DNA from: Anaerolineales bacterium
GTDB lineage: Bacteria > Chloroflexota > Anaerolineae > Anaerolineales > UBA4823
Length of the DNA stretch: 64,000 nt
Assembly: GCA_020061105.1 (NCBI GenBank)
Contig: JAGUYW010000030.1
Location: 20,549 to 84,548, forward strand
Reading direction: 5' to 3'
This document shows, one piece after another, positions 6,940 through 64,000 of this stretch (position 1 is the stretch's first letter; every line of letters begins with the position of its first letter). The notes below the pieces were generated by a model. The model was not told the DNA's origin. It worked only from the letters and a program-made list of their open reading frames with translations, and did not search any database. Both the position numbers and the translations under genes were made by a program.

Positions 6940-6984
6940 CTCAGGTCGGGAATTTTTCTCACATCAGGGATTATAGGGGCGTTT

Positions 6985-8163: not shown

Positions 8164-8168
8164 CGTCG

Positions 8169-12927: not shown

Positions 12928-13215
12928 AGCTCTCTCCTCGTGTGTGCTTAAAGTCAGAACGAACTGTTGTATGAAATTGTAATCAGGTTAGTTGTTGAGT
13001 TACAAGTTGTGATGCTTTTTTGCGCCGACCTCCTTTCTGGACAAGGTCTTGCCCGGCCGAAATCGCAGGCGCTGGGGCAATCAGGAGAATCGATACCCCA
13101 GGCAAATTAATTCTAAACTAATCTTATCACAAAACTATGTGTTTTTTGCCACTTATTATCGGGTCATGCTGGTGCAAAAGTGTTCACAAGCGTTACACCT
13201 GGTGTCGGGGATTCT

Positions 13216-14034: not shown

Positions 14035-15573
14035 ATGGAGAAGCAATCGATGAAAGCGTTACTCGAAAAACTTCACCTGCAACCTTCCAACCCCGGCGCT
14101 TGCAGCGGGCCGGATGGTTGGGTGAGCGACCCTGCAGGCAAAGAATTGATATCCTATAATCCCACAACAGGCGAAGCGCTGGCTGGCGTTGTCCAGGCCA
14201 CCGCAGCGGCCTACCAGGCCATTGCGGACAACGCCCAACAAGCTTTCTTGAAATGGCGCCAGATACCAGCCCCTAAACGTGGTCTTGTGGTGCGCGACCT
14301 GGCAGACGCCTTGCGCCAGGCCAAAGAACCGCTTGGCGACCTGGTTTCGCTCGAGATGGGCAAGATCAAAGCGGAAGGTCAGGGCGAAGTGCAGGAAATG
14401 ATCGATATTTGCGATTTTGCTGTGGGTCTCTCGCGCCAGTTGTATGGGCTGACCATGCCTTCTGAGCGCCCTGGGCATCGCATGTTCGAGCAGTGGCACC
14501 CGCTGGGAGTGGTGGGGGTGATCACAGCATTCAATTTCCCCACCGCAGTCTGGTCGTGGAATGCGGCTATTGCTGCAGTATGCGGCGACCCGGTGCTTTG
14601 GAAGCCATCCTCTTCTACACCGCTGTGCGCCATTGCCGTGCAGCATATTGCCAACCAGGTGATGGCCGATCACGGCCTGCAAGGGATTTTTAACCTGGTT
14701 ATCGGCTCTGGACGCGAAGTTGGCGACCTGATGCTCAAAGATCCGCGCCTGCCGCTGATTTCATTTACGGGTTCTACCCACATCGGGCGGCGCGTTTCGA
14801 CGATGGTAGCCGAACGTTTCGGACGCGCCATCCTGGAATTGGGCGGCAATAACGCCATCATTGTCACCGAGCAGGCTAACCTGGACCTGGCTGTGCGCGC
14901 CATTTTATTCGGCGCGGTTGGCACTGCCGGGCAGCGCTGCACTACCACCCGGCGCATCATCATGCACAAGGACATCGCCCCGCAACTTACTACCCGTTTG
15001 GTGGATGCCTACCGCCAGGTGCGCCTGGGCGACCCGCTCGACCCCAATGTGATGATGGGGCCGCTGGTGGACGGCGATGCTGTGCAGGACATGTTCGCAG
15101 CCCTGGAAGAGGCCCAGCAGCAAGGTGGCCAAATTTTAGCAGGCGGCGAGCGACGCCCCGATTTAGGCGCCAATTTTGTCGAGCCTACCCTCGTCAAAAT
15201 GCCTGCTCAAACCGAGATTGTCAAACAAGAGACCTTTGCCCCGATCCTGTATTTGCTGGAATACAGCACCCTGGAGCAAGCCATTGAAATCCACAACGCT
15301 GTGCCGCAAGGTTTGTCAAGTGCCATCTTTACGGACAATTTGCGCCAGGCCGAAGCTTTTCTCTCGGCTGGCGGCTCGGATTGCGGCATCGCCAATGTCA
15401 ATATTGGCACCTCCGGGGCCGAGATTGGCGGCGCTTTTGGCGGCGAGAAAGAAACCGGCGGTGGGCGCGAGTCTGGTTCCGACGCCTGGAAGGCTTACAT
15501 GCGCCGCCAGACCAACACCATCAATTACTCAACGGAATTGCCCCTGGCGCAGGGGATAAAGTTTGGAGAATAA
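14035..15573 (+). CDS. Aldehyde dehydrogenase, ALDH7 / alpha-aminoadipic-semialdehyde (piperideine-6-carboxylate) dehydrogenase-like
   Basis: Catalytic Glu LELGGNNA and catalytic Cys GTAGQRCTT. N-terminus ...SYNPTTGEALAGVVQA is typical of the ALDH7 family. Confidence 0.8.
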   Translation: MEKQSMKALLEKLHLQPSNPGACSGPDGWVSDPAGKELISYNPTTGEALAGVVQATAAAYQAIADNAQQAFLKWRQIPAPKRGLVVRDLADALRQAKEPLGDLVSLEMGKIKAEGQGEVQEMIDICDFAVGLSRQLYGLTMPSERPGHRMFEQWHPLGVVGVITAFNFPTAVWSWNAAIAAVCGDPVLWKPSSSTPLCAIAVQHIANQVMADHGLQGIFNLVIGSGREVGDLMLKDPRLPLISFTGSTHIGRRVSTMVAERFGRAILELGGNNAIIVTEQANLDLAVRAILFGAVGTAGQRCTTTRRIIMHKDIAPQLTTRLVDAYRQVRLGDPLDPNVMMGPLVDGDAVQDMFAALEEAQQQGGQILAGGERRPDLGANFVEPTLVKMPAQTEIVKQETFAPILYLLEYSTLEQAIEIHNAVPQGLSSAIFTDNLRQAEAFLSAGGSDCGIANVNIGTSGAEIGGAFGGEKETGGGRESGSDAWKAYMRRQTNTINYSTELPLAQGIKFGE

Positions 15574-15579
15574 AAAGTC

Positions 15580-17586
15580 ATGCCTGGCAATAAAAAACGC
15601 TCTATCCAACCTGAAGACCTGTATCGCTTTCAACTGCTCAATGAAGTGCGCCTATCGCCTGATGGGTTGCACGTAATCTATACGGTCCAGCGCGTTGACC
15701 GTAAAACCGAAAAGAAATATTCCAACCTGTGGGTCGTCGACACCGGTACTGCCCAGGCACGCCAATTTACCTGGGGCGATCAGTCGGATAGCATGCCCCG
15801 TTGGTCTCCGGATGGGCAGCGCATCGCTTTTCTTTCCAACCGCCTGGACAAGGAAAAGCCTGCCCAAATCTTCATCATTCCCTTCACCGGCGGCGAAGCG
15901 CGGCCGCTGACCGATAATTTCGCTTCGATCGGCGCGTTTGCCTGGTCTCCAGACGGGAAGCGCCTGCTTTGCCAGGCGCGTAAAAAAGATGCCGAGGTTG
16001 TAGAACGCGAGAAGGATGAGCAAAAGAAAAAGCTCGGCGTGGTGGCGCGCCATTACGATCGCTTGTTCTACAAATTAGATGGCTATGGCTACCTGCCTGA
16101 TGAACGCTGGCACCTCTGGAAGGTGGAAGCTAACAGCGGCAAGGCGGTTCAACTCACTGGCCATCCGGTGTTTGATGAGCGCGATCCGGCGTGGTCGCCG
16201 GATGGCAAGTGGATTGCTTTCTTGTCGAACCGCAGCCCAGACCCCGATGCCAACCTGAACGCGGATGACTTATTTGTCATGCCAGCAAGCGGCGGCGAAA
16301 TTCAACTCATCCCCACCCCTCCAGCAGGTAAATCCTTACCCAGTTTCTCTCCAGATGGCAAATGGATTGCCTATTACGGCGGCGATAACGAAGACCACGG
16401 CTATCAAAATATTGGTCTGTTTGTTGTCCCGGTCGATGGCTCCGCCCAAGCCAAAAACCTGACTGCGGCTTATGATCTGAACGTCTCCTGCTGGACGATC
16501 AATGATCTGGGGCAGCCGGAATTGATGCCGCCCACCTGGTCGAATGACAGCCAGGTGATCTATTTTCCAGTCACATTACACGGTAACTCGCTGCTCAAAT
16601 TGATTTCCGTAAATAGCGATAGCCTTCAGGATGTCGTCCACCAAACTGGCGTGGTGGGCGGTTTCTCTTTTGACCAGGATCAACGACGACTGGCTTTTTT
16701 CTTCGGCGCCTTGGACGATCCCTGCCAGATTCATTTGATGGAAATGGGGAGCGGCAAGCAACGCCAGCTGACCCATATTAACCAGGAACTGCTGCGCACT
16801 TTTGATTTGGGTCAGATAGAAACTGTTTGGATCAAAGGACCAGCCGGCAACGATCTGCAGGGCTGGGTACTTAAACCACCCGGCTTCGACCCGCAGAAAA
16901 AATATCCTTCCATCCTGGAAATCCACGGCGGGCCGATGACCCAATATGGCAATTTCTTCATGCACGAGTTCTACTTCCTGGCGTCGCAAGGCTACGTAGT
17001 GCATTTTTGCAACCCGCGCGGCGGGCGCGGCTACGGTCAAGAACACACCAAAGCCATCTGGGGGGCATGGGGAAGCGCCGATTATGATGATTTAATGGCC
17101 TGGACGGATCATGTCGCTGCTCTGCCTTATATCGACCCCAGCCGCATGGGTGTTACCGGCGGTTCTTACGGCGGCTACATGACGGTGTGGATCATCGGTC
17201 ACACCCGGCGTTTCAAGGCTGCTGTAACTCAGCGCTGTGTCAGCAATTTCATCAGCATGTGGGGCTCCAGCGATTTTAACTGGTCTTTCCAGTTTGAACT
17301 GCAGACCGGGGCGCCCTTCGAGGATTTACAGAAATATTGGGACATGTCGCCGATCAAATATATTGGCAATGCTCGCACGCCTACTCTGGTAATTCATAAT
17401 GAGAATGATCAGCGTTGTCCCATCGAGCAAGGCGAGCAGGTCTTTGTTGCTCTCAAGCGCCTGGGCGTAGAAACAGAGTTTGTGCGCTTCCCCGAAGAGT
17501 TCCACGGGCTGTCGCGGTCGGGGCGCACAGATCGGCGTATCGTTCGCCTGAACCATATTGCGCGCTGGTTCAATCGATATTTATAG
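15580..17586 (+). CDS. S9-family serine peptidase (prolyl oligopeptidase/acylaminoacyl-peptidase type) with N-terminal TolB-like propeller
   Basis: Repeated SPDGK/SPDGQ propeller motifs. Nucleophile elbow GGSYGGYM. C-terminal ...HNENDQRCP...FPEEFHG (Asp/His). Confidence 0.85.
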   Translation: MPGNKKRSIQPEDLYRFQLLNEVRLSPDGLHVIYTVQRVDRKTEKKYSNLWVVDTGTAQARQFTWGDQSDSMPRWSPDGQRIAFLSNRLDKEKPAQIFIIPFTGGEARPLTDNFASIGAFAWSPDGKRLLCQARKKDAEVVEREKDEQKKKLGVVARHYDRLFYKLDGYGYLPDERWHLWKVEANSGKAVQLTGHPVFDERDPAWSPDGKWIAFLSNRSPDPDANLNADDLFVMPASGGEIQLIPTPPAGKSLPSFSPDGKWIAYYGGDNEDHGYQNIGLFVVPVDGSAQAKNLTAAYDLNVSCWTINDLGQPELMPPTWSNDSQVIYFPVTLHGNSLLKLISVNSDSLQDVVHQTGVVGGFSFDQDQRRLAFFFGALDDPCQIHLMEMGSGKQRQLTHINQELLRTFDLGQIETVWIKGPAGNDLQGWVLKPPGFDPQKKYPSILEIHGGPMTQYGNFFMHEFYFLASQGYVVHFCNPRGGRGYGQEHTKAIWGAWGSADYDDLMAWTDHVAALPYIDPSRMGVTGGSYGGYMTVWIIGHTRRFKAAVTQRCVSNFISMWGSSDFNWSFQFELQTGAPFEDLQKYWDMSPIKYIGNARTPTLVIHNENDQRCPIEQGEQVFVALKRLGVETEFVRFPEEFHGLSRSGRTDRRIVRLNHIARWFNRYL

Positions 17587-49995: not shown

Positions 49996-50040
49996 CGGGG
50001 GCAATGCGTCGGATATTGGCGGATTGCCCCCGGTTTTTTT
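49996..50040 (+). terminator. Rho-independent terminator
   Basis: 10-bp stem CGGGGGCAAT/ATTGCCCCCG with a 17-nt loop, then a T7 run. It abuts the stop codon of the convergent gene. Confidence 0.7.
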
Positions 50041-51289
50041 ATTTGCCGGTCTTTTCTTCGATCACAACGCTCAGAATCTTATCTCCAAGTGGCAGCGCCA
50101 TCGATTTCGATGGGTCGCGCGCCGTCAGCTTGAGCACCACATCCATCCCCTCGATCACTTTGCCAAAGATGGTGTAGCCGCCGTTCAAATTGGGGGTGGC
50201 GGCATAGGTGATGAAAAACTGGCTGCCGTTTGAGCCTGGCCCGGCGTTGGCCATGGCCACAATGCCTGCCCCATCGAAAACCAGGCTGGGGTCGATCTCG
50301 TTATCGAAGGCATAACCTGGGCCGCCAAAACCGGTGCCGCTCGGATCGCCGGCCTGGGCGACAAAGCCGGGAATCACCCGGTGGAAGGTCACCCCATCGA
50401 ACCAACCCTGCTGCGCCAGGAAAATAAAGTTGTTGACCGCCAGGGGCGCTTTGTCGGCAAACAATTCGATCACCACTGCCCCTTTCTCGGTGTTCAACGT
50501 GGCAATATAGGTTTTATTTGGATCGATCGTCATCGGTGGGCAGTCTGAAAACATACGTTTTTCCAGCAGCGTGACCTGGATAATGGCGTCCAGGCTTTCG
50601 TAGTTCAATCGCCCGCCGTAGGGCGCGCCGTTAATCAACAGGAAGGGGGTGCCGGGCATGCCGATGGCCGAGTTGCGCTCCCAGGCGTCTTTGGCCAGTT
50701 TCTCCAGGGCCTGGCTTTCCATATCGCGTCGGAAGCGCGCCGTATCCAATCCCAGGGCGGTGGCTTGCTGGGTCGCCCAATCGGGAAATTCCTCCGGCAG
50801 CAATTCGTTCCATTCTTTGACCTGCTCAAATAAAAGATCGTGCATTTCCCAAAACTTGCCTTGCAACCCAGCTGCTTCAGCGGCCTGGACAGCCAGGGCG
50901 GCTTTATCATGCCCGTCTAATGGAAAATGGCGGAACACGAGTCGCAGGTCATCAGGATATTCCTGCAGCAGTTCCTCTAAAACGTCCGTCAGCATATTGC
51001 AATATGGGCACTGAAAGTCGCTATACTCAATGAAAGTAATCGATGCGTCTTGCGCGCCTCGGATCCAATCCTTCTCGCCGGGCGGCGGCAGCAGCGCTTC
51101 CTCGGTCGGGCCGGAGGTTGGCTTGCGACTCACCATCGTGCAGCCTGGCTGGCGGGTGGCTACTACAGCCGGTTGCGCTTCCGACGGGTTGGTTGGTGCC
51201 GGGCTGGCGTTGGGCTGGCCTCCCGAACAAGCAGTCAATAGCATTACCAGCAAAATCGAAAAAGAAACGACGCGTATGCGGTTCATCAT
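50039..51289 (-). CDS. Lipoprotein fusing a DsbA-like thioredoxin domain to a cyclophilin-type peptidyl-prolyl isomerase
   Basis: Lipobox LLTAC. DsbA-like FIEYSDFQCPYC. C-terminal cyclophilin motifs FHRVIPGFVAQAGDP...GGPGY.F.NE...MANAGPGSNGSQFFI. Confidence 0.8.
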   Translation of the reverse strand: MMNRIRVVSFSILLVMLLTACSGGQPNASPAPTNPSEAQPAVVATRQPGCTMVSRKPTSGPTEEALLPPPGEKDWIRGAQDASITFIEYSDFQCPYCNMLTDVLEELLQEYPDDLRLVFRHFPLDGHDKAALAVQAAEAAGLQGKFWEMHDLLFEQVKEWNELLPEEFPDWATQQATALGLDTARFRRDMESQALEKLAKDAWERNSAIGMPGTPFLLINGAPYGGRLNYESLDAIIQVTLLEKRMFSDCPPMTIDPNKTYIATLNTEKGAVVIELFADKAPLAVNNFIFLAQQGWFDGVTFHRVIPGFVAQAGDPSGTGFGGPGYAFDNEIDPSLVFDGAGIVAMANAGPGSNGSQFFITYAATPNLNGGYTIFGKVIEGMDVVLKLTARDPSKSMALPLGDKILSVVIEEKTGK

Positions 51290-53625: not shown

Positions 53626-56600
53626 TTAGTTGTCGTTCTTCCACCAGTTTTGACGCAGGGTAAAGAGGCTGGCATTGGCACGCGCCTCGAGCGTCTTTGC
53701 ACCCTGCTGGATGGCAAACTGGCGGGCAGTATCCAAACACTGTTCAGCCTGGTTGAAAATTGCCTGGCTTTGACCGGTTTGCAGCAATAGTTCGCCCTTG
53801 AGCCGGTAGGCTTCGGCCTCGAACCAGCGTTCGCGGGTTTGCACTCCCACAGCGATTGCTTCTTCCAGCGCTGCCAGGCCGCGCTCAAGCTGCCCGGCCA
53901 GCGCGCAGACCTGGGCGAACAGGATCAAAAAAGTGGTGCGGTTAAGGATTGTGCCCAGGCTTTGGTACTCTTGCATTACCTGATACATCCTCTCGACCTG
54001 TGCAAGGGCAGAAGCGCCGGACTGTGCGTAACCCCATGCCAGTAAAAAGTGCCCCCCCAACTCGTAATTGCGAAACTCATGCTGCTGGGCGATGTGCAGT
54101 AGCTTCTGCGCATGGAGACAAGTAGCTTCGATTTGACCGGTGAAGGCATGTTGCCAGCTGGCTCTGCCTAAAGCATAACAGGATGTCATGGGAACAGAAA
54201 CTTTTTCTGCCAGATCCAGGGCCTCTTGGCTCGCTCGCACGGCTTGTTCTTCATCTCCCATCAACCATTCGCAGTGGCTCAGGTAAGCCAGGGCTACCAC
54301 AGAAGGTGACATACCATATTGATACGCCAGGGAACGTTGTTGCGCGACATCGCGCGGCTGGCTGGCGCGCATGAGTATCTGGCGAGCTTCGATTAACCTA
54401 CCCTGATACAGCGGGCTGACTTGCAGGTTTGCCAGGCATTGCAGGTTAGGGTCGCCAATTTTCTGCGCCAGGTTGTAGAAACGTTTGACCAACCTGTCTA
54501 CTGCAATATGGTTGGCCCGCCCCAAATGGTACACAGAAAGCAGCCACAAGGCGGGGACCAACCGGGCGTCATCAGCCAGTTTGTGGCAAAGCGCTTCTGC
54601 ATCCTGGTAATTTTGTTCAAGGTCGGGTGCTGCCCATCCACGAGCGGCAGTAATCGGTGGCCCCAGACTGAGATGAAGGTCCAGCGCCTGCCAGTCACGA
54701 TTCTCGGATTCGGGCAAAGACCGGAGGTGACGGAGAGCTTGTTGGAAATGGTCGATGGCGGCGCGGCTGGCACTTAACTGGAGGGAGTATTTACCTGCCA
54801 TGGTGTAAAACTGGACAGTTTTTTCGATCTGCCCAGCGGACTCAAAATGGCGTGCCAATACATGGGCAACCTTGGCTAGTTTATCTTTATCGTGGATATT
54901 GTACTGCTCGAGTATTGCACCTACCTTACCATGCAGCCGTGATTTTTCCACCATATCCAGGTGGTTGTACAGGTAGATCTGAAACAGCGAGTGGCGAAAG
55001 CGATAGTGAGACAGGTTTTGTCCGCCTACCTGCTGCAGGCTTTGGGCAGTCACTAGCTGGTGTTGTTTGCTGACCTCCCTGCTTAACAGGTCACACACTC
55101 GCTGTACATCTTTCCCCGCTACACCTGCGATAACCTCAGCAGTGAATTGTTCTCCTTCCACGCAGGCGATATTCAAAAGCTCCTGACATTCCTCTGAAAG
55201 GTGGGCGATGCGCCGTGCGATCACTGCCTCTACCCGGCCTGGCAGCTTCTCCCAATTTAGATGCTGACTGGTGATCCATTTCCCCCGGTTGTTCTTGATA
55301 ATTTCATCGCGCAACTGCATGCCGCGCAAGAGCTCGATCGCAAACAGGGGGTTCCCCGAAGTATGGTGATAAAGGGAGTCTCGAAAGTGCTGGTCGAGCT
55401 CGTTCGGCTCGCTCTGGATCAGCTCTTTCACAAATAGAACGCCCTCGCTTTGCATCAGGTCGACCTGGATGTCGCCGTACACCGCACTCAGCTCCTGGAC
55501 GATCTCCAGCAAGGGGTGGGCTTCGGGGCTTCGCTTAACGATTACTTCTTCGGGACGATAGGCTCCCAAGATGAGAATTTTACTGCCGACGATCTGGCGT
55601 GCCAGGTGGAAGAGCAGGTTCACTGACCCGGGGTCGATCCACTGTAAATCGTCGAGCACCAAAATTAAGGGATGACGTCGCGCCAATTGGCAGTAAACCT
55701 GCGTTAGCTGGTCGAACAAGACAGCCTGTGATACTCGAGTCCGGAGCAGGGGATCAGACGCGCCCTTGATACGTACCTGCAAACGTCTCAGGGATTCTGG
55801 GGAGATGCCGGTATTCAGGCGCGCCAGCGATAGCAAATCTTTTCCCGAGAGGAAGCGGTCGAACAGGTCTGGTCCATGTTCCATTAAGACATCCAGTGTA
55901 TGGGGCAGGAACTTCCACAGCCGCCGCGCATGTTCTGTCGTGATGACGCCGGAGGACACCGGGATTTCCACCTCGCCGGCAAGCATATGTAGGGTGCTCA
56001 GAAAAGGATAATAAGGATCCCCTTGGCCGGTAAATGCGCTGCACTGCCCCCAGGCAACCAGTAGATCGGGGTAGGTAAGCATGGCACGGCGGGAAAATTC
56101 TGCCAGCAAAGCTGTCTTGCCGCTGCCCGGTTCACCAGTCACAAAATAAACCCTGCCATGCCCTTGGTTGGCTTCCTCCAAGGCTTTCTCAAGCAGTCCA
56201 AGCTCAAGCTGGCGCGCAAAGAAGAGCGGGAATCTATCTTTAGAAAGACGACCCTCCACCAGAAATTCAGGGATGTGCTTTTGAGGAAGCATCTCATTCC
56301 CTGTCCATGCAGGTGGCTGAGGCATACTGCCCAGAGATATCCCAGGTTTACCATCTCGGAGCTGTTCGTAAAGCCGGACGGTTTCTGGCTCAGGCTTGAT
56401 GCCCAGGTCACGAGCGAGGTGAGAGCAGCATTCGTCGTACAATACCAGTGCGGTAGAGCGCCGGTTCAGAGCAGACAGGAGTTGCATCTGGTAACGGTAG
56501 GCGGCCTCATCCCATGGTTCCAATTCAAGATAATGCCGGGTGTACTCAGCCGCGGCTTCCAGTTCGCCCCATTGCTCTTGCGCCAGCGCCAGCCGTCTTA

Positions 56601-57117
56601 GGATCTGCAGCAGCCTCTGGTGAGCCTGTTCGCGGGTCGCTAATATCCATTCCTCCAAAGGTGCGCTGTCAACCGAGAAACCTTCCAGGAATTCCCCCCG
56701 ATAGAGAGCCAGAGCAGCTTCCAGTTGGTGGATGCTGATTTCGCCTGGCAATATCTCTTTCCGGGTGTCGGTTTGTGCTGGTCGATCCAGAAATGCCCAC
56801 AAATCGAGCCAACAGTCGCTGTCACGATTGAACTGGAGGGTGGTTTCTGAAAGGAGGAAAAATGAGGGCTCTGACCCTGCGTCTCCAAGTATATGGCGCA
56901 GGTTGGAGAGTGCGTTGCGCAGGTTGCTTTGAGCCGATATTTCGGGCAGGTCGGGCCACAACAGGCCGGCTAATGTAGCGCGTGACCAGGGACGGCGACA
57001 TTCGACCATCAAATAAGCCAGCAGAGCTCGTACTTTGTTGGAGCGGAATCCACTCAGGTGGTGACCTTCCAACTCAGCGGCAAAAGGGCCTAAGAGTCTG
57101 ACCAAGAGGCGCGACAT
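53626..57117 (-). CDS. SARP/BTAD-family transcriptional regulator fused to AAA/NB-ARC-like ATPase and TPR array (STAND architecture)
   Basis: N-terminal winged helix plus BTAD (LLGPF....G........K.RALLAYL; ALALYRGEFLEG; YRYQMQLL). Walker A GEPGSGKTAL and Walker B ILVLDDLQWID. The C-terminal ~500 aa are TPR-like repeats. Confidence 0.85.
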   Translation of the reverse strand: MSRLLVRLLGPFAAELEGHHLSGFRSNKVRALLAYLMVECRRPWSRATLAGLLWPDLPEISAQSNLRNALSNLRHILGDAGSEPSFFLLSETTLQFNRDSDCWLDLWAFLDRPAQTDTRKEILPGEISIHQLEAALALYRGEFLEGFSVDSAPLEEWILATREQAHQRLLQILRRLALAQEQWGELEAAAEYTRHYLELEPWDEAAYRYQMQLLSALNRRSTALVLYDECCSHLARDLGIKPEPETVRLYEQLRDGKPGISLGSMPQPPAWTGNEMLPQKHIPEFLVEGRLSKDRFPLFFARQLELGLLEKALEEANQGHGRVYFVTGEPGSGKTALLAEFSRRAMLTYPDLLVAWGQCSAFTGQGDPYYPFLSTLHMLAGEVEIPVSSGVITTEHARRLWKFLPHTLDVLMEHGPDLFDRFLSGKDLLSLARLNTGISPESLRRLQVRIKGASDPLLRTRVSQAVLFDQLTQVYCQLARRHPLILVLDDLQWIDPGSVNLLFHLARQIVGSKILILGAYRPEEVIVKRSPEAHPLLEIVQELSAVYGDIQVDLMQSEGVLFVKELIQSEPNELDQHFRDSLYHHTSGNPLFAIELLRGMQLRDEIIKNNRGKWITSQHLNWEKLPGRVEAVIARRIAHLSEECQELLNIACVEGEQFTAEVIAGVAGKDVQRVCDLLSREVSKQHQLVTAQSLQQVGGQNLSHYRFRHSLFQIYLYNHLDMVEKSRLHGKVGAILEQYNIHDKDKLAKVAHVLARHFESAGQIEKTVQFYTMAGKYSLQLSASRAAIDHFQQALRHLRSLPESENRDWQALDLHLSLGPPITAARGWAAPDLEQNYQDAEALCHKLADDARLVPALWLLSVYHLGRANHIAVDRLVKRFYNLAQKIGDPNLQCLANLQVSPLYQGRLIEARQILMRASQPRDVAQQRSLAYQYGMSPSVVALAYLSHCEWLMGDEEQAVRASQEALDLAEKVSVPMTSCYALGRASWQHAFTGQIEATCLHAQKLLHIAQQHEFRNYELGGHFLLAWGYAQSGASALAQVERMYQVMQEYQSLGTILNRTTFLILFAQVCALAGQLERGLAALEEAIAVGVQTRERWFEAEAYRLKGELLLQTGQSQAIFNQAEQCLDTARQFAIQQGAKTLEARANASLFTLRQNWWKNDN

Positions 57118-57349: not shown

Positions 57350-58072
57350 ATGATCACTGGCGAACAACTGCTAGAGGTCTTTGCTGCTTATAACCCGCAA
57401 ATATGGCCGATGCAGTTTGTGGCTTACCTGCTGGGTGTGACGGCAGTTTATCTTGCGCTACGAAAGACAGCCTTTTCAGCGCGTGGCATTCCTGCCATCC
57501 TGGCGTTTTTCTGGCTGTGGGTGGCGCTGTTGTTTTGGCTGCCCAGCGTGTTGCAAGGTTTTATGCCCGGGTATTTCTTTGTAGCCATTTTCTTGATCCA
57601 GGGTTTGTTTTTTGTGATTTATACCATCAGACCCCGGCTGCATTTTGGATCCCCGCCAGATTTGAAGACCTGGATGGGGCTGGGAATGATGCTGTATGCC
57701 CTGCTTGGCTACCCTCTGGTCGGCGCGCTGGTGGGACACACCTACCCGCGCATGTCCCCATTTGGTTTGACCCCCTGCCCGGTGGTGACATTCACTTTTG
57801 GTTTATTATTGTTGAGCGAACAAAAAGTGCCCAAGGGTCTGTTGATCTTACCCTTCCTTTACGCCCTTACTGGCTTTGTGTGGGTATCCATCGGCATGTG
57901 GGAGGATATCGGCATGATCCTCAGCGGATTGGTGGGAACAGGATTTATCTTGTACCGTGATTCCAGGGTTCCAACTGAGAATCAGGTAAATGGTGGTTGG
58001 AGCCTGAATATTCCAGATAAAAAACCGCCGGTTAAGATGAGCCATGAAATCAACCGGTCATCGAGCAGCTGA
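57350..58072 (+). CDS. Integral membrane protein (DUF6064-like)
   Basis: N-terminus EQLLEVFAAYNPQIWPMQFVAYLLGV and ~7 hydrophobic segments. Family assignment from memory only. Confidence 0.55.
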   Translation: MITGEQLLEVFAAYNPQIWPMQFVAYLLGVTAVYLALRKTAFSARGIPAILAFFWLWVALLFWLPSVLQGFMPGYFFVAIFLIQGLFFVIYTIRPRLHFGSPPDLKTWMGLGMMLYALLGYPLVGALVGHTYPRMSPFGLTPCPVVTFTFGLLLLSEQKVPKGLLILPFLYALTGFVWVSIGMWEDIGMILSGLVGTGFILYRDSRVPTENQVNGGWSLNIPDKKPPVKMSHEINRSSSS

Positions 58073-58200
58073 ATGCCCCATATTACCCCGTGATAGAAAC
58101 CAGTTATTAGAAATGAAAGGAGGTCAAGACGAGCAAAACAACCAACCAAAAAAACCGAGAAAAATCCGAATATTTTGAAATAACCATTTCTGGAGGAAAC

Positions 58201-58764
58201 ATGAAAACCAATCACTTGTGTGTCAGTCGTATCTTAGCAGCTGCTGTCATAATCGCCGCGATCTCGATGATCCTGATCGTTCATCCAGCTGCAGCAGAAG
58301 CCACTCGGCTTGACTTCGAAAACTACAATATTGCTTGCTCAATCGTTTCTCAAAAGCTGTGGGTTAGCGATGGTGGGGTTGTGCACATCAGGGACCGTGA
58401 GCTTAACTCGGTGGTGACTTCCAACAGCGAATATTTTGCAGGCCCAGGACATATCTTTGCCAACGCAAACTTATTCAACCCCGCCATGGGTATTGGCACA
58501 TACTTTGGCACCTTGGACATCTACCCAACAGCTTATCCTGAAGGATACTGGTTTGGTCATTGGAGCATGCAGATCACTGAGAATGGCTACCAGGGCCTCG
58601 CTCGCTTAAAAGGTTATGGCAGTCTGCAAGGCATGTTGGCTTTTAGCACCTTGACTCCGCTTCCACCGACAGTATTGGCTAATTATAAGGACCTGTGTGG
58701 TGGAAATCAGCCGATTGCCGGAACATATGTCGAAGGCTATTACCTGGTTCCAGGAGGTGAATGA
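58201..58764 (+). CDS. Secreted hypothetical protein
   Basis: Signal peptide ending AAAEA. GGAGGAAAC RBS. No recognised motif. Confidence 0.5.
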   Translation: MKTNHLCVSRILAAAVIIAAISMILIVHPAAAEATRLDFENYNIACSIVSQKLWVSDGGVVHIRDRELNSVVTSNSEYFAGPGHIFANANLFNPAMGIGTYFGTLDIYPTAYPEGYWFGHWSMQITENGYQGLARLKGYGSLQGMLAFSTLTPLPPTVLANYKDLCGGNQPIAGTYVEGYYLVPGGE

Positions 58765-58796
58765 GCCAGTTGTCCATCTGTAGCGAAGAGGATTAT

Positions 58797-58830
58797 GGGG
58801 ATTTGGGCTGGATATTCTGCCCAAATCCCC
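58797..58830 (+). terminator. Stem-loop after secreted-protein gene
   Basis: 12-bp stem GGGGATTTGGGC/GCCCAAATCCCC with a 10-nt loop and a weak T-tract. Confidence 0.5.
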
Positions 58831-58876
58831 GAGGGTAACCTTGTTTTCACTGATGTAATTTTATTCGAGGTAGATT

Positions 58877-59260
58877 ATGAAGGTTAACACCTTGATCGTG
58901 ATTATGGCGTTACTCTCTCTGATCTGGGGGGCCGGTTTTATCCTGATACCTACCTTCTTCTGGTCGCTTTATGGACTGGCTCTGGACGCGGGAGGGGAGT
59001 ATATGTCACGCCAGTTAGGTGTGGTTTTCTTTATGCTGGGCTTGATCCTATGGTTAGCCAGAAAGGAACAAAGCCCGGTGGCATTGCGAGCGATGACGAT
59101 CGGTCTTTTTTACGGCAATGTGCTGGGCTTTGTGGTGGCGCTAATTGGTCAATTCGGCGCCGAGATCAGCATGTTAGGCTGGGTTGGGATCGTTTCGTAC
59201 TTCTTGCTGGCATTAGGTTTTGGTTATTATCTGGTGAGACCGGTAGATTCGCACATCTAA
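58877..59260 (+). CDS. Small 4-TM membrane protein, function unknown
   Basis: 127 aa with four hydrophobic helices and a GAGG RBS. Confidence 0.5.
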   Translation: MKVNTLIVIMALLSLIWGAGFILIPTFFWSLYGLALDAGGEYMSRQLGVVFFMLGLILWLARKEQSPVALRAMTIGLFYGNVLGFVVALIGQFGAEISMLGWVGIVSYFLLALGFGYYLVRPVDSHI

Positions 59261-59494
59261 GCTCTTCAAGTGCAATGATACAGGATGCGGAAGATTTGGA
59301 GGAAGCTTCAAACATACGAGAAAGCCTGAGCGGAGACATTAGCCAGAACCCCTGCCCCGCTAGTCTCCTGTATGATCGTGGGCGCTATGGCGGGAGGGTA
59401 AGGAACGACTGTCTTAGCCGGATAACGTAACCCGAATAGACAAATACCACTGCAACAAAGGTTCAAAAACCCATTGGTGAATTTCTCAAGAAAA

Positions 59495-59521
59495 TTGAAA
59501 ACCATGTGAGTCTGGTATAAT
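59495..59521 (+). promoter_or_regulatory. Putative promoter with extended -10 for the Prx-like gene
   Basis: TTGAAA-N15-(TGg)TATAAT lies ~70 nt upstream of ATG 59589. Confidence 0.5.
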
Positions 59522-59588
59522 GACAACATAGAGATCGGGTGGGGGGAATGGGCATCTACAAAATAACTAATCTTTCGAGGTTCGAAAA

Positions 59589-60065
59589 ATGAGTCGTTTA
59601 TCGCTGGGCGATACAGCCCCAAATTTTGCGCTACCCAACCATGAAGGCGCAGTGTTCAAATTATCGGATGTCTATCGTACTCAGAATGTGCTGCTGGTTT
59701 TTAACCTTGGTTTTGTCTGACCGCATTGCACCAATCATATGGCGCAGTTGCGCCAGGACTATGCAAAGTTTCAAGACTTGAACAGCGAAGTGCTGGTGAT
59801 CTTGCCGAATGGGCCTAAGATGATCGAGCGGTATGCTCGCCGCACTGCTACACCTTACCCGATCTTGAGCGACAAGGGCGCCCGGGTTGCAGAACAGTAT
59901 GGCATCAAAACCAGGCGCCTGGTGCAGGTCGCCGCGTTCACGCCCAGCGTGTTCCTGGTCGATCGAACGGGAACGATCCGTTACACCAACTATTCGACTT
60001 CGTATATCAAGGAGCCGGATAATGGCGAGCCGCTGGCGGTATTGGCGTCAGGCAAATCACAATAA
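59589..60065 (+). CDS. Peroxiredoxin-like (AhpC/TSA, PRX_like2-type) thiol-disulfide oxidoreductase with in-frame TGA at the redox site: candidate selenoprotein (U-P-H-C)
   Basis: ATG 59589 is in frame with ORF 59739..60065. The only interruption is TGA 59718-59720 (codon 44). Conceptual product: MSRLSLGDTAPNFALPNHEGAVFKLSDVYRTQNVLLVFNLGFV-U-PHCTNHMAQLRQDYAKFQDLNSEVLVI... The TGA sits where this family carries the first Cys of CxxC. A SECIS-like hairpin lies downstream. Confidence 0.6.
59736..59763 (+). promoter_or_regulatory. SECIS-like hairpin 15 nt downstream of TGA 59718
   Basis: Lower stem CATA/TATG, a 4-nt 3' bulge, upper 6-bp stem TGGCGC/GCGCCA, apical loop AGUU (contains GU). Confidence 0.45.
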
Positions 60066-60118
60066 TTACCCTGTGGGTTTTGAAATTGATCGATGGGGGG
60101 TCATGTTGACCCTGGTGA

Positions 60119-60491
60119 GTGCTGGAATGGTCAGCGGCAGCGTGCAATATCTGTACGATCTGATTGGTGGAGATGGCTTACCAGCGCGCGCCGTGGTTCC
60201 GGTTAGTGTGTGAGCCGCTCAAGGTGAAGCTTCAAGCGACTCAAGTGCGCGTTTTCTTGATCGGCGACGGGGTGCAATGCGCTGTCAAAGGCCAGTAGAC
60301 TCCACAGGAATATTACAATATCGAGCGGATGATTATGCCTGTCCTGCACGCCGGGGAAGTAGCAACTTGAGGAACATGCCAAAAAGCCCGAGGTCTCGGG
60401 CAAGACGTGCTGGATCGCTAAGCTCCAATTCGGGACGAAGGAACTGCTTACAGATTGGACCATGGAAGCCGACAAAGGATTGGTTTTTTGA
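60119..60491 (+). pseudogene. YchN/DsrE-family gene remnant with TGA at the C-x-x-C cysteine (ancestral selenoprotein?), plus TAG, another TGA and a +1 frameshift
   Basis: Frame A reads ...AYQRAPWFRLVCEPL...VRVFLIGDGVQCAVKGQ-TAG(60296)-TPQEYYNIERMI...GEVAT-TGA(60368)-GTCQKARGLGQDVL. After a 1-nt shift near 60410-60416 it reads IAKLQFGTKELLTDWTMEADKGLVF-stop(60489). This matches the family blocks GQK..GYYN, C-x-T-C..RG and W....ADKVL.F. A further TGA lies at 60161 in the N-terminal strand. Confidence 0.5.
60386..60401 (+). promoter_or_regulatory. SECIS-like hairpin 15 nt downstream of TGA 60368
   Basis: 6-bp stem GCCCGA/TCGGGC with apical loop GGUC. Confidence 0.4.
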
Positions 60492-60514
60492 GGCCTCGGG
60501 ATTGGAATTTAAAG

Positions 60515-60554
60515 CAGTTTTGGAAGTGACCTGCCACGTTCACTTCCAAAACTG
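60515..60554. repeat. Perfect 15-bp inverted repeat with 10-nt spacer
   Basis: CAGTTTTGGAAGTGA-(CCTGCCACGT)-TCACTTCCAAAACTG, read directly. No U-tract follows. Confidence 0.8.
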
Positions 60555-60744
60555 TTGAAGAGAATGCAAGGGGCGCGAATGCCACCCCCATCCATCATTT
60601 TACACTTTGAAATCATCTCAGGTAAGTGACACCTGTCCATAAAAAAATAGGGGCGATTGACCCTAACCAAAAATGGGGGCATTTACTATGATTAAGCTCG
60701 GAAGATTAAGCCAGGATGAGATATTGTTTCCGAGGAGAATGCAT

Positions 60745-61995
60745 ATGAAAAGTAAATGGTTGATCTTAGTTGTTCTGACGCTGGCGGCCTTGCTGATAGC
60801 AGGTTGCGCCGGCGCGCAAGGTCCTGCAGGACCCGCCGGCCCGGCAGGACCGGCAGGTCTGAAAGGCGACCCCGGCCCAGCAGGTCCGGCAGGCCCAAAG
60901 GGCGATCCTGGCCCGGCGGGTGAAGCCGCCTCCGCCTTCCGCACCTATGCAGGCGACGAAGCTTGCGCCGGGTGCCACACGGATCTTTACGACAAATACA
61001 AGATGTCAGGTCATCCCTGGAAATTAACCAAAGTTGAAGGTGGACAAGCCCCAAATTATCCGTTCACCAAGCTCACTGAGTTGCCACAAGGCTATACCTG
61101 GGACGATATTTTGTATGTAATTGGCGGTTACGCCTGGAAGGCCCGTTTTGTAAACAAGGAAGGCTATATCATCACAGATGAACCAGGTAAGACTGGCAAT
61201 GCAGATTACTTGAACCAGTGGAACTTTGCGAATACTATTGTTGGTAAGCAAGCTGGTTGGGTCAAGTACAATTCCGGTAAAGAGAAGCTGCCATATAATT
61301 GTGGCTCTTGCCACACCACTGCATATAGTCCACGGGGCAATCAGGATGATTTGCCCGGTTTGGTAGGCACCTGGAAACAAGAAGGGATTCGCTGTGAAGA
61401 ATGCCATGGCTTTGGCGGTTTGCACATTCAGGATCCACAAGGCGCCCCGATGGATGTTGTGCGCGATTCCGAGATGTGCGGTAAATGCCATCGCCGCGAC
61501 GATGTAGAAAATGTCAACGCCAAGGGCGGCTTCATTGAGCATCACGAACAGTATGAAGAACTATATCAAAGCAAGCATATCACAATCAACTGTGTAGTCT
61601 GCCATGACCCGCACACTGGCGTAGTTCAATTGCGCCAGATGGGTATGCAGACCACTCGCACTACTTGCGCGAATTGTCACTATAAACAGGCCCAGGTACA
61701 AAACAATGAAATCCATGCTGCAATGAGAGTAGATTGCGTGGAGTGTCATATGCCTAGGCTGGTCAAAACTGCCTGGGGTGATATCGATAAGTTTACTGGC
61801 GATATTCGCACCCACCTGATGGCCATTGACTCGCAGCAGCTTACCACTTTTGGCGAAGATGGCAGTCTGGTTAGCGGTCAAATCGGTTTGGATTGGGCTT
61901 GTCGGCACTGTCACGTGGAAGGCGGCAGCGCAACTGCAAAAACCGATGAAGAATTACTGAATGGAGCGTCTGATTATCACACACCCAATCCATAA
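60745..61995 (+). CDS. Octaheme c-type cytochrome lipoprotein with N-terminal collagen-like (G-X-Y)12 tether
   Basis: Start at ATG 60745 (GGAGA RBS) and lipobox LIAGC. Eight CxxCH motifs: CAGCH, CGSCH, CEECH, CGKCH, CVVCH, CANCH, CVECH, CRHCH. Confidence 0.85.
60820..60927 (+). repeat. Collagen-like triplet repeat coding region
   Basis: Encodes [36 protein letters not shown]. The GC-rich repeat also creates spurious antisense ORFs (60663..61054). Confidence 0.85.
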
Positions 61996-62023
61996 CCATC
62001 TCTGGGCTTAATCTTTCACCTAC

Positions 62024-62060
62024 GAGTTCCCCTATTGGCCGGTGTAATCACGCCGGCCAA
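62024..62060. terminator. Bidirectional terminator between cytochrome gene and response regulator gene
   Basis: 9-bp stem ATTGGCCGG/CCGGCCAAT with a 10-nt loop, followed by TTTTATTT. Confidence 0.6.
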
Positions 62061-62065
62061 TGCTT

Positions 62066-62749
62066 TTATTTCGGAAGCTCAGGGCCATCTTGCTTATTCA
62101 ACCGATCCAATAGATTGTTTTGAATAGCATAAACAGCAAGCTCGATGCGGTTGTTTAAATTCAGCTTTTCAAGAATAGTGCTGATGTAGTTGCGAACGGT
62201 TTTTTCCTGTAAATTTAATGTCTGGCCAATTTCAAGGTTGGTTTTTCCATGCACGACTTCTGCAAGCACATCCAATTCGCGCTCTGATAGATTATAGAAA
62301 GCCTGGTCATATAGTTTTTGTTCCACGCGGCGCACATGCGCCAATAAATGAGCGGCCGCGGCGGGGTCGAGTAACGCCTCGCCATGCGCTGCCGCTTTGA
62401 TGGCGCGCAATAGTTCATGGTTACCTACCTGCTTAAGAACATAGCCAGTTGCTCCAGCCCGGATGGCTTGCACAACAAGGTTGTCATCCTGATAGGATGT
62501 CAGGATGATGATTTTACTTTGTGGGAATTTTTGGCTTATCTGGCGGGTAGCCTCAATCCCGCTGGTGCCGGGCAAGCGGATATCCATTAACACCACATCG
62601 GGACGCAACCTTTCCACGCCAGCCAGAGCCTCGGATGCGTTACCCGCCTCGCCTACCACTTGCATGTCTTCCTGATCATTGATTAACGTCATCAGACCAA
62701 GACGGACGATTTCATGATCATCCACCAGTAAAATACGAATTTTTTCCAT
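62066..62749 (-). CDS. NarL/LuxR-family response regulator
   Basis: REC motifs ILLVDDHEIVR...LMDIRLPGTSG. C-terminal LuxR HTH LSERELDVLAEVVHGKTNLEIGQTLNLQEKTVRNYIS. Confidence 0.9.
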   Translation of the reverse strand: MEKIRILLVDDHEIVRLGLMTLINDQEDMQVVGEAGNASEALAGVERLRPDVVLMDIRLPGTSGIEATRQISQKFPQSKIIILTSYQDDNLVVQAIRAGATGYVLKQVGNHELLRAIKAAAHGEALLDPAAAAHLLAHVRRVEQKLYDQAFYNLSERELDVLAEVVHGKTNLEIGQTLNLQEKTVRNYISTILEKLNLNNRIELAVYAIQNNLLDRLNKQDGPELPK

Positions 62750-63963
62750 CAGCTTTCTTCTTCCCAGGGAAAATAGAGGTGCAAGGTAACGCCCTTACCC
62801 GGCTGGTTGGAGATATTCAATTTTCCTCCTAGCAAGCGCGCTCGGTCGCTCATGTTACGCAGCCCATAACCTGGTTTGGCGTCTGCCAACATTCCTCTAC
62901 CATTATCACGGATCGAGATGAAGATGAGGTGATCAGTGGGGGCAAGAGATATATCAACCTGGCTGGCATGTGCATGGCGAAATACATTAACCAGCGCATC
63001 GCGCACGATTGCCAAGATGTGCGCCAATCTGGCGGCTGACAAGGTGCAGTCTTCAGGTAGTTCGGAAATCAGCCGGATTTGTACACCTCCCACTATTTGC
63101 ATTTCCTGGATAAACTGTTCCAGCGTTTTTGTCAGCGGCTGGTTTTCCAGCGCTACCGTCATTTCGCTCAGGTTGCGTCGCATATCTTGGACGGCGCCAT
63201 CCAAGGCGCTAATGGCGCTATTTAAACGATCAGCCACTGGGCTTCCGGGTGTTGCCAACCTGGCGGCCGATTCGACCAGTAGCCCGGCCGTGTAAACAGA
63301 TTGCAGCGCCCCATCATGCAATTCACGCGCCAGGCGTTCGCGCTCGATGGCCAGGATTTGTTTTTGCTCCATATCTTCTAACCGCCTGGCGTATTCTAAG
63401 TCGAACACCTCCAGTCCTCGGATCACGGAAACAGCCAGCATCAATCCCACAATCGAGCGGAAAATGCGCACCGGAATCTGGATCATATGAACAAATGCTT
63501 GCGTATTAAACCAATTTGCCGGAAAGAAAGGCGCGGGAGGAGGTACTAATCCACTGAGCAGAGCATACACAAAAAGCACATAGCTGACCATATGCAAACT
63601 GCGGGTAATATGCGGCGCATTGAGCTCAGCGATCTTTTTACGGGCGTAATAGCGCAAGGCAAAGCCTGATAACAATCCTGCTGGTAGGGAGATGAAATAA
63701 CGCGCCAAAGCATTCCCCGTGTTACGCCACGTCTCGCGATCCGGCAAGGTGAGTAAGAGAAAGCCAAAAACAACGATAATCCAGATTGTCAAAATGACAG
63801 CCGGGATCGCGTAAAACCAGCCTTGGTTTCGGTCTTTGGGGAGCAGAGATATGCCAAACTGGAAAAGAGCCGTAAACGAGGTTGCCAGAACCAATAGTTG
63901 TACACCTGTCCAGAAGAAGATCGACTCGACGCTGAGATTGGGGGATTGTAATGGAATCAACAA
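62749..63963 (-). CDS. Membrane sensor histidine kinase, HisKA_3 (NarX/LiaS/DesK-like) class
   Basis: ~6 N-terminal TM segments. H-box RELHDGALQSVY. HATPase motifs FRHAHA...IRDNGRGM...GYGLRNM. The stop overlaps the response regulator start by 1 nt. Confidence 0.85.
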   Translation of the reverse strand: MLIPLQSPNLSVESIFFWTGVQLLVLATSFTALFQFGISLLPKDRNQGWFYAIPAVILTIWIIVVFGFLLLTLPDRETWRNTGNALARYFISLPAGLLSGFALRYYARKKIAELNAPHITRSLHMVSYVLFVYALLSGLVPPPAPFFPANWFNTQAFVHMIQIPVRIFRSIVGLMLAVSVIRGLEVFDLEYARRLEDMEQKQILAIERERLARELHDGALQSVYTAGLLVESAARLATPGSPVADRLNSAISALDGAVQDMRRNLSEMTVALENQPLTKTLEQFIQEMQIVGGVQIRLISELPEDCTLSAARLAHILAIVRDALVNVFRHAHASQVDISLAPTDHLIFISIRDNGRGMLADAKPGYGLRNMSDRARLLGGKLNISNQPGKGVTLHLYFPWEEES

Positions 63964-64000
63964 TTCGCCCCATTCATAGAGACCATGAACCAGCCCGAAC

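Follow-up and report, generated by a model that had tools for sequence, protein, structure and literature searches.

What does a collagen-like repeat do between a lipid anchor and a multihaem cytochrome? The question is raised by a gene at positions 60745-61995 (+) of a 64,000-nucleotide stretch of contig JAGUYW010000030.1 of an Anaerolineales bacterium, which is called the window hereafter and of which all 64 kb were covered by our six-frame scans. A preliminary description of this DNA had claimed that the gene encodes a protein in which a lipobox is followed by a collagen-like repeat and an octahaem cytochrome domain. The answer that we favour, and that we consider on balance the probable one, is that the protein is a lipid-anchored, collagen-stalked octahaem cytochrome serving as an extracytoplasmic electron relay. 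Its parts are known, namely a bacterial lipoprotein, a bacterial collagen-like repeat and a multihaem cytochrome of the OcwA/MccA clade. The preliminary description knew of no account of their combination, and our searches of the literature on collagen-like repeats together with cytochromes, multihaem proteins or Chloroflexi likewise turned up no description of the combined architecture. Public records name the homologues "hypothetical protein", "cytochrome c family protein" or "multiheme c-type cytochrome", and their precomputed Pfam annotations already list Collagen and cytochrome domains, without comment.

Architecture of the window cytochrome

The open reading frame (ORF) of the lipoprotein octahaem c-type cytochrome, identified by the ORF listing, by its Pfam Collagen and multihaem family matches and by its homologues, is intact from ATG 60745 to the stop codon at 61993-61995 and encodes 416 residues. 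An alternative ATG upstream in frame, at 60673, would give a longer reading; we place the start at 60745 because a Shine-Dalgarno sequence read from the DNA, GAGGAG (60732-60737, +), lies 7 nt 5' of it and because the homologues begin at the equivalent MK.. position. The encoded protein consists of a lipobox signal peptide, 13 unbroken G-X-Y triplets, a linker of 12 residues and a domain with eight CxxCH sites, and the architecture claimed at the outset is thus borne out by the sequence and by the Pfam Collagen and multihaem matches.

The signal peptide with its lipobox L-I-A-G-C (60745-60807, +) has a positive n-region, MKSK, and a hydrophobic core, and it conforms to the lipobox pattern [LVI][ASTVI][GAS]C. 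Cys21 (60805-60807), the predicted lipid-modified first residue of the mature protein, is invariant in an alignment of 105 sequences of the family; a lipobox Cys was found at the equivalent position in most full-length homologues, and the exceptions missed the strict pattern only.

The collagen-like tract begins one residue (Ala) after Cys21. The 12 triplets reported earlier at 60820-60927 had been counted correctly, and the in-phase run amounts to 13 uninterrupted triplets, or 39 residues (60811-60927, +), when the preceding GAQ is taken as the first of them. The tract is rich in Pro (10 residues, 26%) and Ala (9), as had been noted, but not in Lys and Asp (2 each), which had also been named; it holds one Glu. 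The match to PF01391 (Collagen) scores 29.7 bits against a gathering cut-off of 27.2, and Cytochrome_C7, Cytochrom_c3_2, Paired_CXXCH_1 and Cytochrome_C554 also score above their Pfam cut-offs on this protein. When the 64 kb were scanned for runs of at least 5 G-X-Y triplets, this tract and one chance run of 5 triplets were the only ones returned.

The linker between the stalk and haem site 1 (60928-60963, +) holds in the alignment an (A/G)xEYVG-like family motif, the consensus at the linker and haem 1 being GAEYVGxxTCxGCH, and across the family 6-25 residues separate the end of the tract from the first CxxCH. The region after the tract (60928-61992, +; residues 62-416) is 355 residues long, somewhat shorter than the ~380 first given. 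Its eight canonical CxxCH sites were all located by pattern search, at 60964-60978, 61300-61314, 61393-61407, 61477-61491, 61591-61605, 61666-61680, 61735-61749 and 61900-61914, and they span 60964-61914 (+). Over the window the CxxCH pattern occurs 16 times against 6.1 expected; 8 occurrences lie inside the cytochrome gene, and the other 8 are single and scattered.

Conservation of the collagen-like tract

A homologue search in 5.8 billion proteins (E<=1e-3) returned 2491 matches, of which the best 120 are 57-80% identical to the window protein, apart from one tandem-duplicated protein at 44%. The statistics of the stalk were drawn from 116 sequences that include the N-terminus, that is, 115 of these best 120 homologues and the window protein. 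In parallel, a species-level scan with one genome per GTDB species confirmed at least 352 relatives among candidate stretches, and the best 80 loci were analysed.

In each of the 116 sequences the stretch from the lipobox Cys to haem 1 contains exactly one G-X-Y run, which is nowhere interrupted. It measures 9-17 triplets, with a mode of 12-13 and with 109 sequences at 11-15, and in 91 sequences a single residue separates its start from the Cys. Position X is Pro in 70% of the triplets, and position Y is Ala in 32%, Pro in 18%, Glu in 17% and Gln in 15%. In the 105-sequence alignment the stalk glycines 29, 32, 35, 38, 41 and 44 (window protein numbering) are invariant, and the lengths of the tract among close homologues differ by whole triplets only. 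The strict periodicity described for one protein is therefore that of all its close homologues, at 57-80% identity, within a narrow range of lengths and with no non-periodic linker among them. The asymmetry between X and Y, the invariant Gly phase and the length changes by whole triplets are requirements of a triple helix, and a flexible linker needs none of them.

The comparison of the codons leads in the same direction. Between the window and the homologue of locus L001, which is 79% identical, 5 stalk codons are identical, 19 differ synonymously and 12 non-synonymously, and the counts are similar at four further loci. Tandem Repeats Finder reports periods of 9, 27 and 36 bp over the tract, and we ruled out a tandem-repeat artefact at the DNA level, the copies being only 73-80% alike and their divergence mostly synonymous. 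Because the G-X-Y pattern is held while the DNA diverges mostly at synonymous sites, selection acts on the protein pattern; judged from these comparisons, the tract is a selected feature and not noise.

The same periods bear on another explanation, which sees in the tract not a spacer of fixed length but, as in Scl, Lcl and BclA, either an adhesin or a variable surface repeat prone to slippage. It would agree with the triplet number, which varies from 5 to 22 between species at the species-level loci, and with weak partial NCBIfam matches of residues 20-65 to the Lcl and Scl adhesin models. These matches, however, reach ~28 bits against cut-offs of 325-500, copies so unlike one another are a poor substrate for slippage, the lengths are narrow in the 116 sequences, and the tract, placed between anchor and head, would be the least exposed part of the protein. 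We hold this explanation to be very improbable.

The tract is also specific to this cytochrome. Among 161 other multihaem ORFs of the 80 loci a G-X-Y run was found in 3, two of which are paralogues of the same cytochrome family, and no unrelated gene with a tract of at least 7 triplets was met in the ~1 Mb that these loci comprise. The other ORFs with at least 7 triplets are antisense images, frameshifted N-terminal pieces of family members, or a stalked cytochrome at a contig end. The antisense ORFs over the window tract (for example 60663-60944, -) were likewise rejected as genes, being mirror images of the Gly/Pro codons.

Two observations concern the stalk in single sequences. A homologue at 75% identity (L009, ~6887-7000) has one in-phase Gly-to-Ser change, in the context GDPGPQ-S-PPGPAG; it is the sole interruption of the stalk that was seen, and it may be real, as are the interruptions of natural collagens, or a sequencing error. 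In locus L028, three different collagen-stalked lipoprotein cytochromes occur in one Anaerolineae cluster, with 13, 9 and 10 triplets and 8, 6 and 8 haems respectively: the family member at ~7878-9254 and two others at 12439-13470 (+) and 15509-16822 (-). With this trio, heterotrimers become conceivable, as do stalks of several heights in the same pathway.

The haem head

The eight CxxCH motifs are all invariant in the alignment, and so are eight His outside the motifs, H90, H227, H266, H267, H278, H290, H357 and H412, with H324 nearly invariant. Since eight invariant non-motif His are available as distal ligands, eight bis-His haems are possible; the sequence would thus allow an all-bis-His ligation of the head, which would suit a role in electron transfer.

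An AlphaFold2 monomer model, built on the 105-sequence alignment and with no haems placed, has a mean predicted local distance difference test (pLDDT) score of 82 and a predicted template modelling (pTM) score of 0.75. The stalk has no structure in it (pLDDT 47-68), as is expected for a monomer, which says nothing either way on the triple helix, and the C-terminal part contains two short helices only, at 382-387 and 401-408. When the model was compared with the PDB by Foldseek, the matches were MccA (4rkm, E 1.4e-11, template modelling score 0.50 on the query), OcwA (6i5b, 4.8e-10) and OmhA (6qvm, 4.6e-8), and no other PDB fold was found below E 0.4. By sequence, the closest solved structure is OcwA (6I5B), with a phmmer E of 6.5e-15 over residues 55-254, which comprise haem sites 1-4. 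MccA, OcwA, OmhA and cytochrome c554 make up clade 3 of the NrfA/HAO superfamily (PMC9250108), and by both sequence and fold the head is a compact relative of the OcwA/OmhA/MccA cytochromes of this clade.

The window protein is the orthologue of none of these three, because its haems number eight and those of OcwA nine, and because it is without long C-terminal helices, has neither a CxxCK nor a CX15CH site and is about half the size of MccA. CxxCK, the motif of the catalytic haem of NrfA and octahaem nitrite reductase (ONR), and CX15CH are both absent from the window protein, all eight sites being plain CxxCH, and the matches to octahaem nitrite reductases cover residues 265-316 only. As regards the oligomeric state of related octahaem cytochromes, MccA is reportedly a homotrimer. 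The HAO family is homotrimeric (PMC8042395).

Taxonomic distribution and interchangeable tethers

The closest homologues at the species-level loci are 75-79% identical to the window protein, among the matches listed. An exact look-up of the window protein returned no record, and these matches, together with the shared synteny, point to an Anaerolineales host. Chloroflexota is the label of 71 of the best 80 loci, the majority of them Anaerolineae, and the lineages named include Anaerolineales, Promineifilaceae, Ardenticatenaceae, Caldilineae and Litorilinea. A stalk of at least 5 triplets is present at 72 of the 80 loci, counting L045 and L067, whose N-terminus is encoded by an ORF of its own: it was found at 68 of the 71 loci labelled Chloroflexota, at 0 of 4 labelled Spirochaetota, 0 of 1 Planctomycetota, 2 of 2 Acidimicrobiia and 2 of 2 with other labels (Sulfomarinibacteraceae; uncultured bacterium), these being the submitters' labels of metagenome bins, which may be wrong. 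The Anaerolineae are without outer-membrane genes, that is, monoderm, according to genome analyses (PMC5481317, PMC6013643), and the restriction of the family almost entirely to Anaerolineae and Chloroflexota agrees with the cell without a conventional periplasm that the preliminary description had supposed. The distribution fits a stalk that is needed where the protein is anchored on the cytoplasmic membrane and faces the wall.

More distant relatives were collected with the haem domain alone, in 1.84 billion cluster representatives (1272 matches, 259 of them below 1e-30). At least 5 triplets are present in 27 of the best 150 matches, which range from 35 to 68% identity, and some relatives have long tracts of 18-41 triplets, such as P0131 (41), P0139 (27) and P0178 (20). 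The N-termini of the others among the best 150 are plain signal peptides, short or acidic non-periodic linkers, or Ig/FN3-like or dockerin-like modules. From these sequences, the octahaem module is a conserved cassette with interchangeable N-terminal tethers, of which the collagen stalk is the version fixed in the Anaerolineae.

The cassette itself has been duplicated in tandem in several proteins (among them P0121-P0124, P0128, P0129, P0134 and P0135), which reach 16 haems (~720 residues) and 32 haems (1398 residues, four copies), none of them collagen-stalked. In a distant subgroup (P0162, P0167, P0172, P0195, P0215, P0216 and P0222) the G-X-Y tract is followed by one to several Cys-framed acidic repeats of the pattern CWDL-x-x-DG-x-CD…ED-x-N-x-DG…DC, which resemble calcium-binding thrombospondin-type-3 or dockerin-like loops; the Cys pairs right after the tract could form an inter-chain knot in this subgroup.

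The variety of tethers gives substance to another account of the stalk, in which the tract is a monomeric, extended, polyproline-II-like spacer, a mere tether, and the cytochrome works as a monomer or a dimer. Because non-periodic acidic or Pro-rich linkers occupy the same place in distant homologues, and a Pro/Glu/Val-rich, non-periodic one is found in the 10-haem lipoprotein of the same clusters (L072), a plain spacer suffices for related proteins. Furthermore, with 13 triplets the tract is short and without a known hydroxylation system, AlphaFold2 gives it no structure, and the closest solved relative, OcwA, is a mixture of monomer and dimer. A monomeric spacer, on the other hand, has no need of a Gly in every triplet, but all 116 sequences keep the phase without a break and the length changes by whole triplets only; nor does it explain why Pro stands at X in 70% of the triplets and at Y in 18%, why the pattern is kept under mostly synonymous divergence of the DNA, or why some relatives have 27-41 triplets. 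We regard the monomeric spacer as unlikely, although it deserves to be taken seriously.

Genomic context

Most homologues are encoded by the first gene of a multihaem cytochrome cluster. The downstream sequence is long enough at 69 loci, and at 56 of these the gene that follows on the same strand encodes a cytochrome with 4-14 CxxCH sites, most often 14, 9 or 8, and the four clusters read in detail also hold cytochrome b, FeS or NrfD genes. Representative members of these clusters are a 14-haem protein with a C-terminal membrane helix, a cytochrome b561, a 10-haem lipoprotein and an 8-haem membrane-anchored protein, together with a Tat-exported 4Fe-4S protein (Fer4_11), NrfD, NapC/NirT-like cytochromes and Ccm maturation genes. 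Such modules recall the Geobacter quinol oxidases of the inner membrane (CbcL-, ImcH- and Cbc-type), a resemblance and nothing beyond it. The assignment of the partner proteins to named families was rejected, the NCBIfam matches being partial and sub-threshold ones to DmsE, NrfH and HmcA only.

Such a context, which resembles that of the extracellular electron-transfer clusters of monoderms, is seen in most relatives but not at the window copy. Here the cytochrome gene is convergent with a gene for a NarL/GerE-type response regulator (62066-62749, -; Pfam Response_reg and GerE), next to which lies a gene for a HisKA_3 histidine kinase (62749-63963, -; Pfam HisKA_3 and HATPase_c) whose N-terminus spans the membrane several times and in which no sensor domain was recognised. 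Between the convergent genes a consensus scan marked a strong terminator-like hairpin of 13 pairs with a T-run (62033-62072, +), a pattern match only. The layout of a solitary cytochrome gene with a two-component system recurs at L001-L003, L009, L033 and L042, with response regulators of 60-72% identity. Because a homologue of the HisKA_3 kinase lies at most 2 kb from the cytochrome gene at 16 of the 80 loci, the context points to a dedicated regulation of the cytochrome gene, and the expression of the window copy is probably controlled by the adjacent HisKA_3/NarL two-component system. Two genomes, DATEDC01 (L009, L014) and DYGV01 (L001, L012), hold both a solitary and a cluster copy, from which it follows that the window gene belongs to a solitary paralogue lineage.

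Could the head then be a catalytic reductase of a soluble substrate (nitrite, hydroxylamine, sulfite or tetrathionate) and not a relay, the stalk merely keeping the enzyme at the surface? The window gene stands alone, without cytochrome partners, and it adjoins a two-component system of the NarL family, which includes nitrate/nitrite regulators. The nearest folds, MccA and OcwA, are catalytically active (PMC6703420, PMC9250108). Against a reductase are the eight plain CxxCH sites, with neither CxxCK nor CX15CH among them, the eight invariant non-motif His that can serve as distal ligands, so that no open haem site is required, and the multihaem cytochrome gene that comes next on the same strand at 56 of 69 loci. 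We consider a reductase rather unlikely, more so than the monomeric spacer discussed above, and it is in any case compatible with the stalk hypothesis.

Proposed model

In the model that we propose, the cytochrome would be exported by the Sec pathway, its signal peptide would be cleaved at the lipobox and the haems would be attached outside the cell. Lipidated at Cys21, the protein would be held on the outside of the cytoplasmic membrane, where the 13 G-X-Y triplets of three copies would pair into a collagen triple helix starting at the membrane surface. The nucleation of this helix would come from the three neighbouring lipid anchors, from contacts among the three haem heads, or from both. 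That the stalk forms a triple helix and a trimer is, in our opinion, rather probable, and is the part of the model to which we give the most weight. The triple helix would be a stiff rod of ~11 nm (39 residues x 0.286 nm per residue, the standard collagen parameter), and the stalk, acting as a spacer of defined length, would lift three octahaem heads, with 24 haems in all, into the wall zone of a cell without an outer membrane, the head being held probably ~10 nm above the cell membrane. Many homologues keep the G-X-Y phase to within six residues of the haem-1 cysteine, and we propose that for this reason the three heads must pack tightly round the axis. The head would pass electrons between membrane modules of multihaem cytochromes and cytochrome b, presumed to oxidize quinols, and distal cytochromes or external or soluble acceptors; to this relay role we incline, without pressing it far.

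Several points weigh against this model. A short free collagen peptide of the composition of the tract (26% Pro, no hydroxyproline) is probably unstable at ambient temperature, and a presumably unhydroxylated tract of 13 triplets would depend on the head or the membrane anchor for the nucleation of the helix. Salt bridges between K-G-D pairs, which occur twice in the window stalk, were dropped as a family-wide stabiliser, since the pairs are present in 12 of the 116 sequences. The model of the head is without the long C-terminal helices that build the interfaces of NrfA, HAO and OcwA, and OcwA itself is a mixture of monomer and dimer (PMC6703420). The distribution rests on labels that may be wrong and on a small non-Chloroflexota sample, three Chloroflexota loci are without the stalk, and distant homologues (35-50% identity) have other N-terminal modules, or none, in its place. 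Lastly, the window cytochrome is solitary, with no other multihaem gene within the 64 kb, and among the partner proteins of the clusters none reached a curated NCBIfam cut-off.

A bolder version of the model may be put forward tentatively, as possible rather than probable. The protein would be a lipid-anchored homotrimeric "pylon", a member of a previously unrecognised class of membrane-anchored bacterial collagens, acting as a tethered electron shuttle. Its rigid stalk of ~10 nm would set the height of the 24-haem head in the wall zone of monoderm Anaerolineae, and the end of the stalk, 6-12 residues from haem 1, would place the haem-1 groups of the three chains close to one another on the trimer axis. 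If the protein pivoted on its lipid anchor, the head could swing between membrane donors and distal acceptors, and the length of the stalk would be a molecular ruler for the envelope.

Comparison with known systems

The collagen-stalked cytochrome shares features with several systems and coincides with none of those considered here. OcwA, the cell-surface nonahaem terminal reductase of the Gram-positive Thermincola potens (PDB 6I5B; PMC6703420), is likewise an extracytoplasmic multihaem cytochrome of a single-membrane bacterium that performs extracellular electron transfer; its haems 2 and 5 are penta-coordinate, that is, open (PMC6703420). It differs by its nine haems, its 525 residues and its C-terminal three-helix bundle, where the window protein has eight haems in 355 residues, and by a plain signal peptide with neither lipobox nor collagen tract. 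The octahaem haem-copper sulfite reductase MccA of Wolinella succinogenes (PDB 4RKM) gave the best fold match and has the same number of haems. It is, however, a soluble periplasmic protein of ~660 residues from a diderm host, and its identity to the window protein is 18-19%. MccA reportedly has a CX15CH site for haem 8 and an active site with a Cys-bound Cu(I), whereas the window protein has eight plain CxxCH sites. OmhA, the S-layer-associated surface cytochrome of the monoderm Carboxydothermus ferrireducens (PDB 6QVM), also has an extra module that positions it in the envelope. It differs in being an undecahaem protein, with eleven haems. The positioning of OmhA is achieved by S-layer-homology-type domains and not by a lipid anchor and a collagen stalk.

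As to the stalk, BclA of the Bacillus anthracis exosporium, Scl1/Scl2 of Streptococcus pyogenes and Lcl of Legionella also have an uninterrupted G-X-Y tract matching PF01391, in a plan where a collagen stalk joins an anchor to a globular domain, and weak PDB and NCBIfam matches to BclA, Scl and Lcl were obtained over the tract. They serve as adhesins or surface fibres, their anchor is LPXTG or the exosporium, their tracts are much longer and their heads (C1q-like or V domain) are specialised for trimerisation, whereas in the window protein the lipobox Cys directly abuts a tract of only 13 triplets and the head is a redox one. A functional analogy may be drawn with Braun's lipoprotein Lpp of E. 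coli, in which an N-terminal Cys lipid anchor is followed by a trimeric rod whose length sets a distance in the envelope, length mutants of Lpp changing the width of the periplasm; the Lpp rod is, however, an alpha-helical coiled coil that is anchored in the outer membrane, linked to peptidoglycan and devoid of a functional head. A second analogy is offered by C1q, the collectins, the class A scavenger receptor and ColQ-tailed acetylcholinesterase, in which a short collagen helix trimerises and spaces globular domains, the ColQ collagen tethering an enzyme at a fixed site. These eukaryotic proteins are hydroxylated and unrelated outside the G-X-Y repeat, and none of their heads carries redox cofactors.

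The stalked design is kept in hundreds of genomes of the Anaerolineae (Chloroflexota), a poorly understood group that ranks with the most abundant bacteria of the subsurface, of sediments, of digesters and of wastewater sludge. The family is a good entry point to the pathway by which these single-membrane filaments move respiratory electrons beyond the membrane, because its gene usually directly precedes another multihaem cytochrome gene. If our model is true, a collagen triple helix used as a lipid-anchored redox spacer would be a new answer to the crossing of the wall, which is solved differently in Thermincola (OcwA) and Carboxydothermus (OmhA), and the known roles of bacterial collagens, as adhesins and spore fibres, would be extended to respiration. 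If the pylon reading is true as well, this would be the first collagen-based redox device and would give a mechanistic handle on the electron exchange of Chloroflexota with their surroundings. The hypothesis is directly testable with a small recombinant protein, and a short hydroxyproline-free trimerising stalk combined with a haem wire module may serve the design of bioelectronic proteins.

Other features of the window

The non-coding spacer upstream of the cytochrome gene (60066-60744) is unusually long, ~680 bp, and contains two terminator-like hairpins on the minus strand. A Rfam scan of 58000-64000 gave no match, so that the spacer holds no known RNA family; it may hold a regulatory region for the neighbouring response regulator.

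Another ORF of 416 residues in the window (50039-51289, -) was rejected as a paralogue of the cytochrome, being a DsbA/thioredoxin-cyclophilin fusion lipoprotein with a non-periodic Pro/Ala/Ser linker, SGGQPNASPAPTNPSEAQ... As an extracytoplasmic prolyl isomerase of the cyclophilin type, it could in principle assist the folding of the Pro-rich collagen stalk. A few kb upstream of the cytochrome gene, a 1163-residue BTAD-AAA ATPase-TPR regulator (SARP/LuxR-like "STAND" type) is encoded at 53626-57117 (-); it is followed on the other strand by a DUF6064 gene and two ORFs without a family match.

Immediately before the long spacer lies a gene of the AhpC/TSA family (59589-60065, +; family match), which encodes a peroxiredoxin-like protein. 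It contains an in-frame TGA (59718-59720) exactly at the redox-active position (GFV-[TGA]-PHC), and a GC-rich hairpin lies ~23 nt downstream of this codon (GGCGCA-GUUG-CGCC region). No tRNA-Sec was found in the 64-kb window. The gene is a candidate for either a selenocysteine-containing selenoprotein (U-x-x-C) or a pseudogene.

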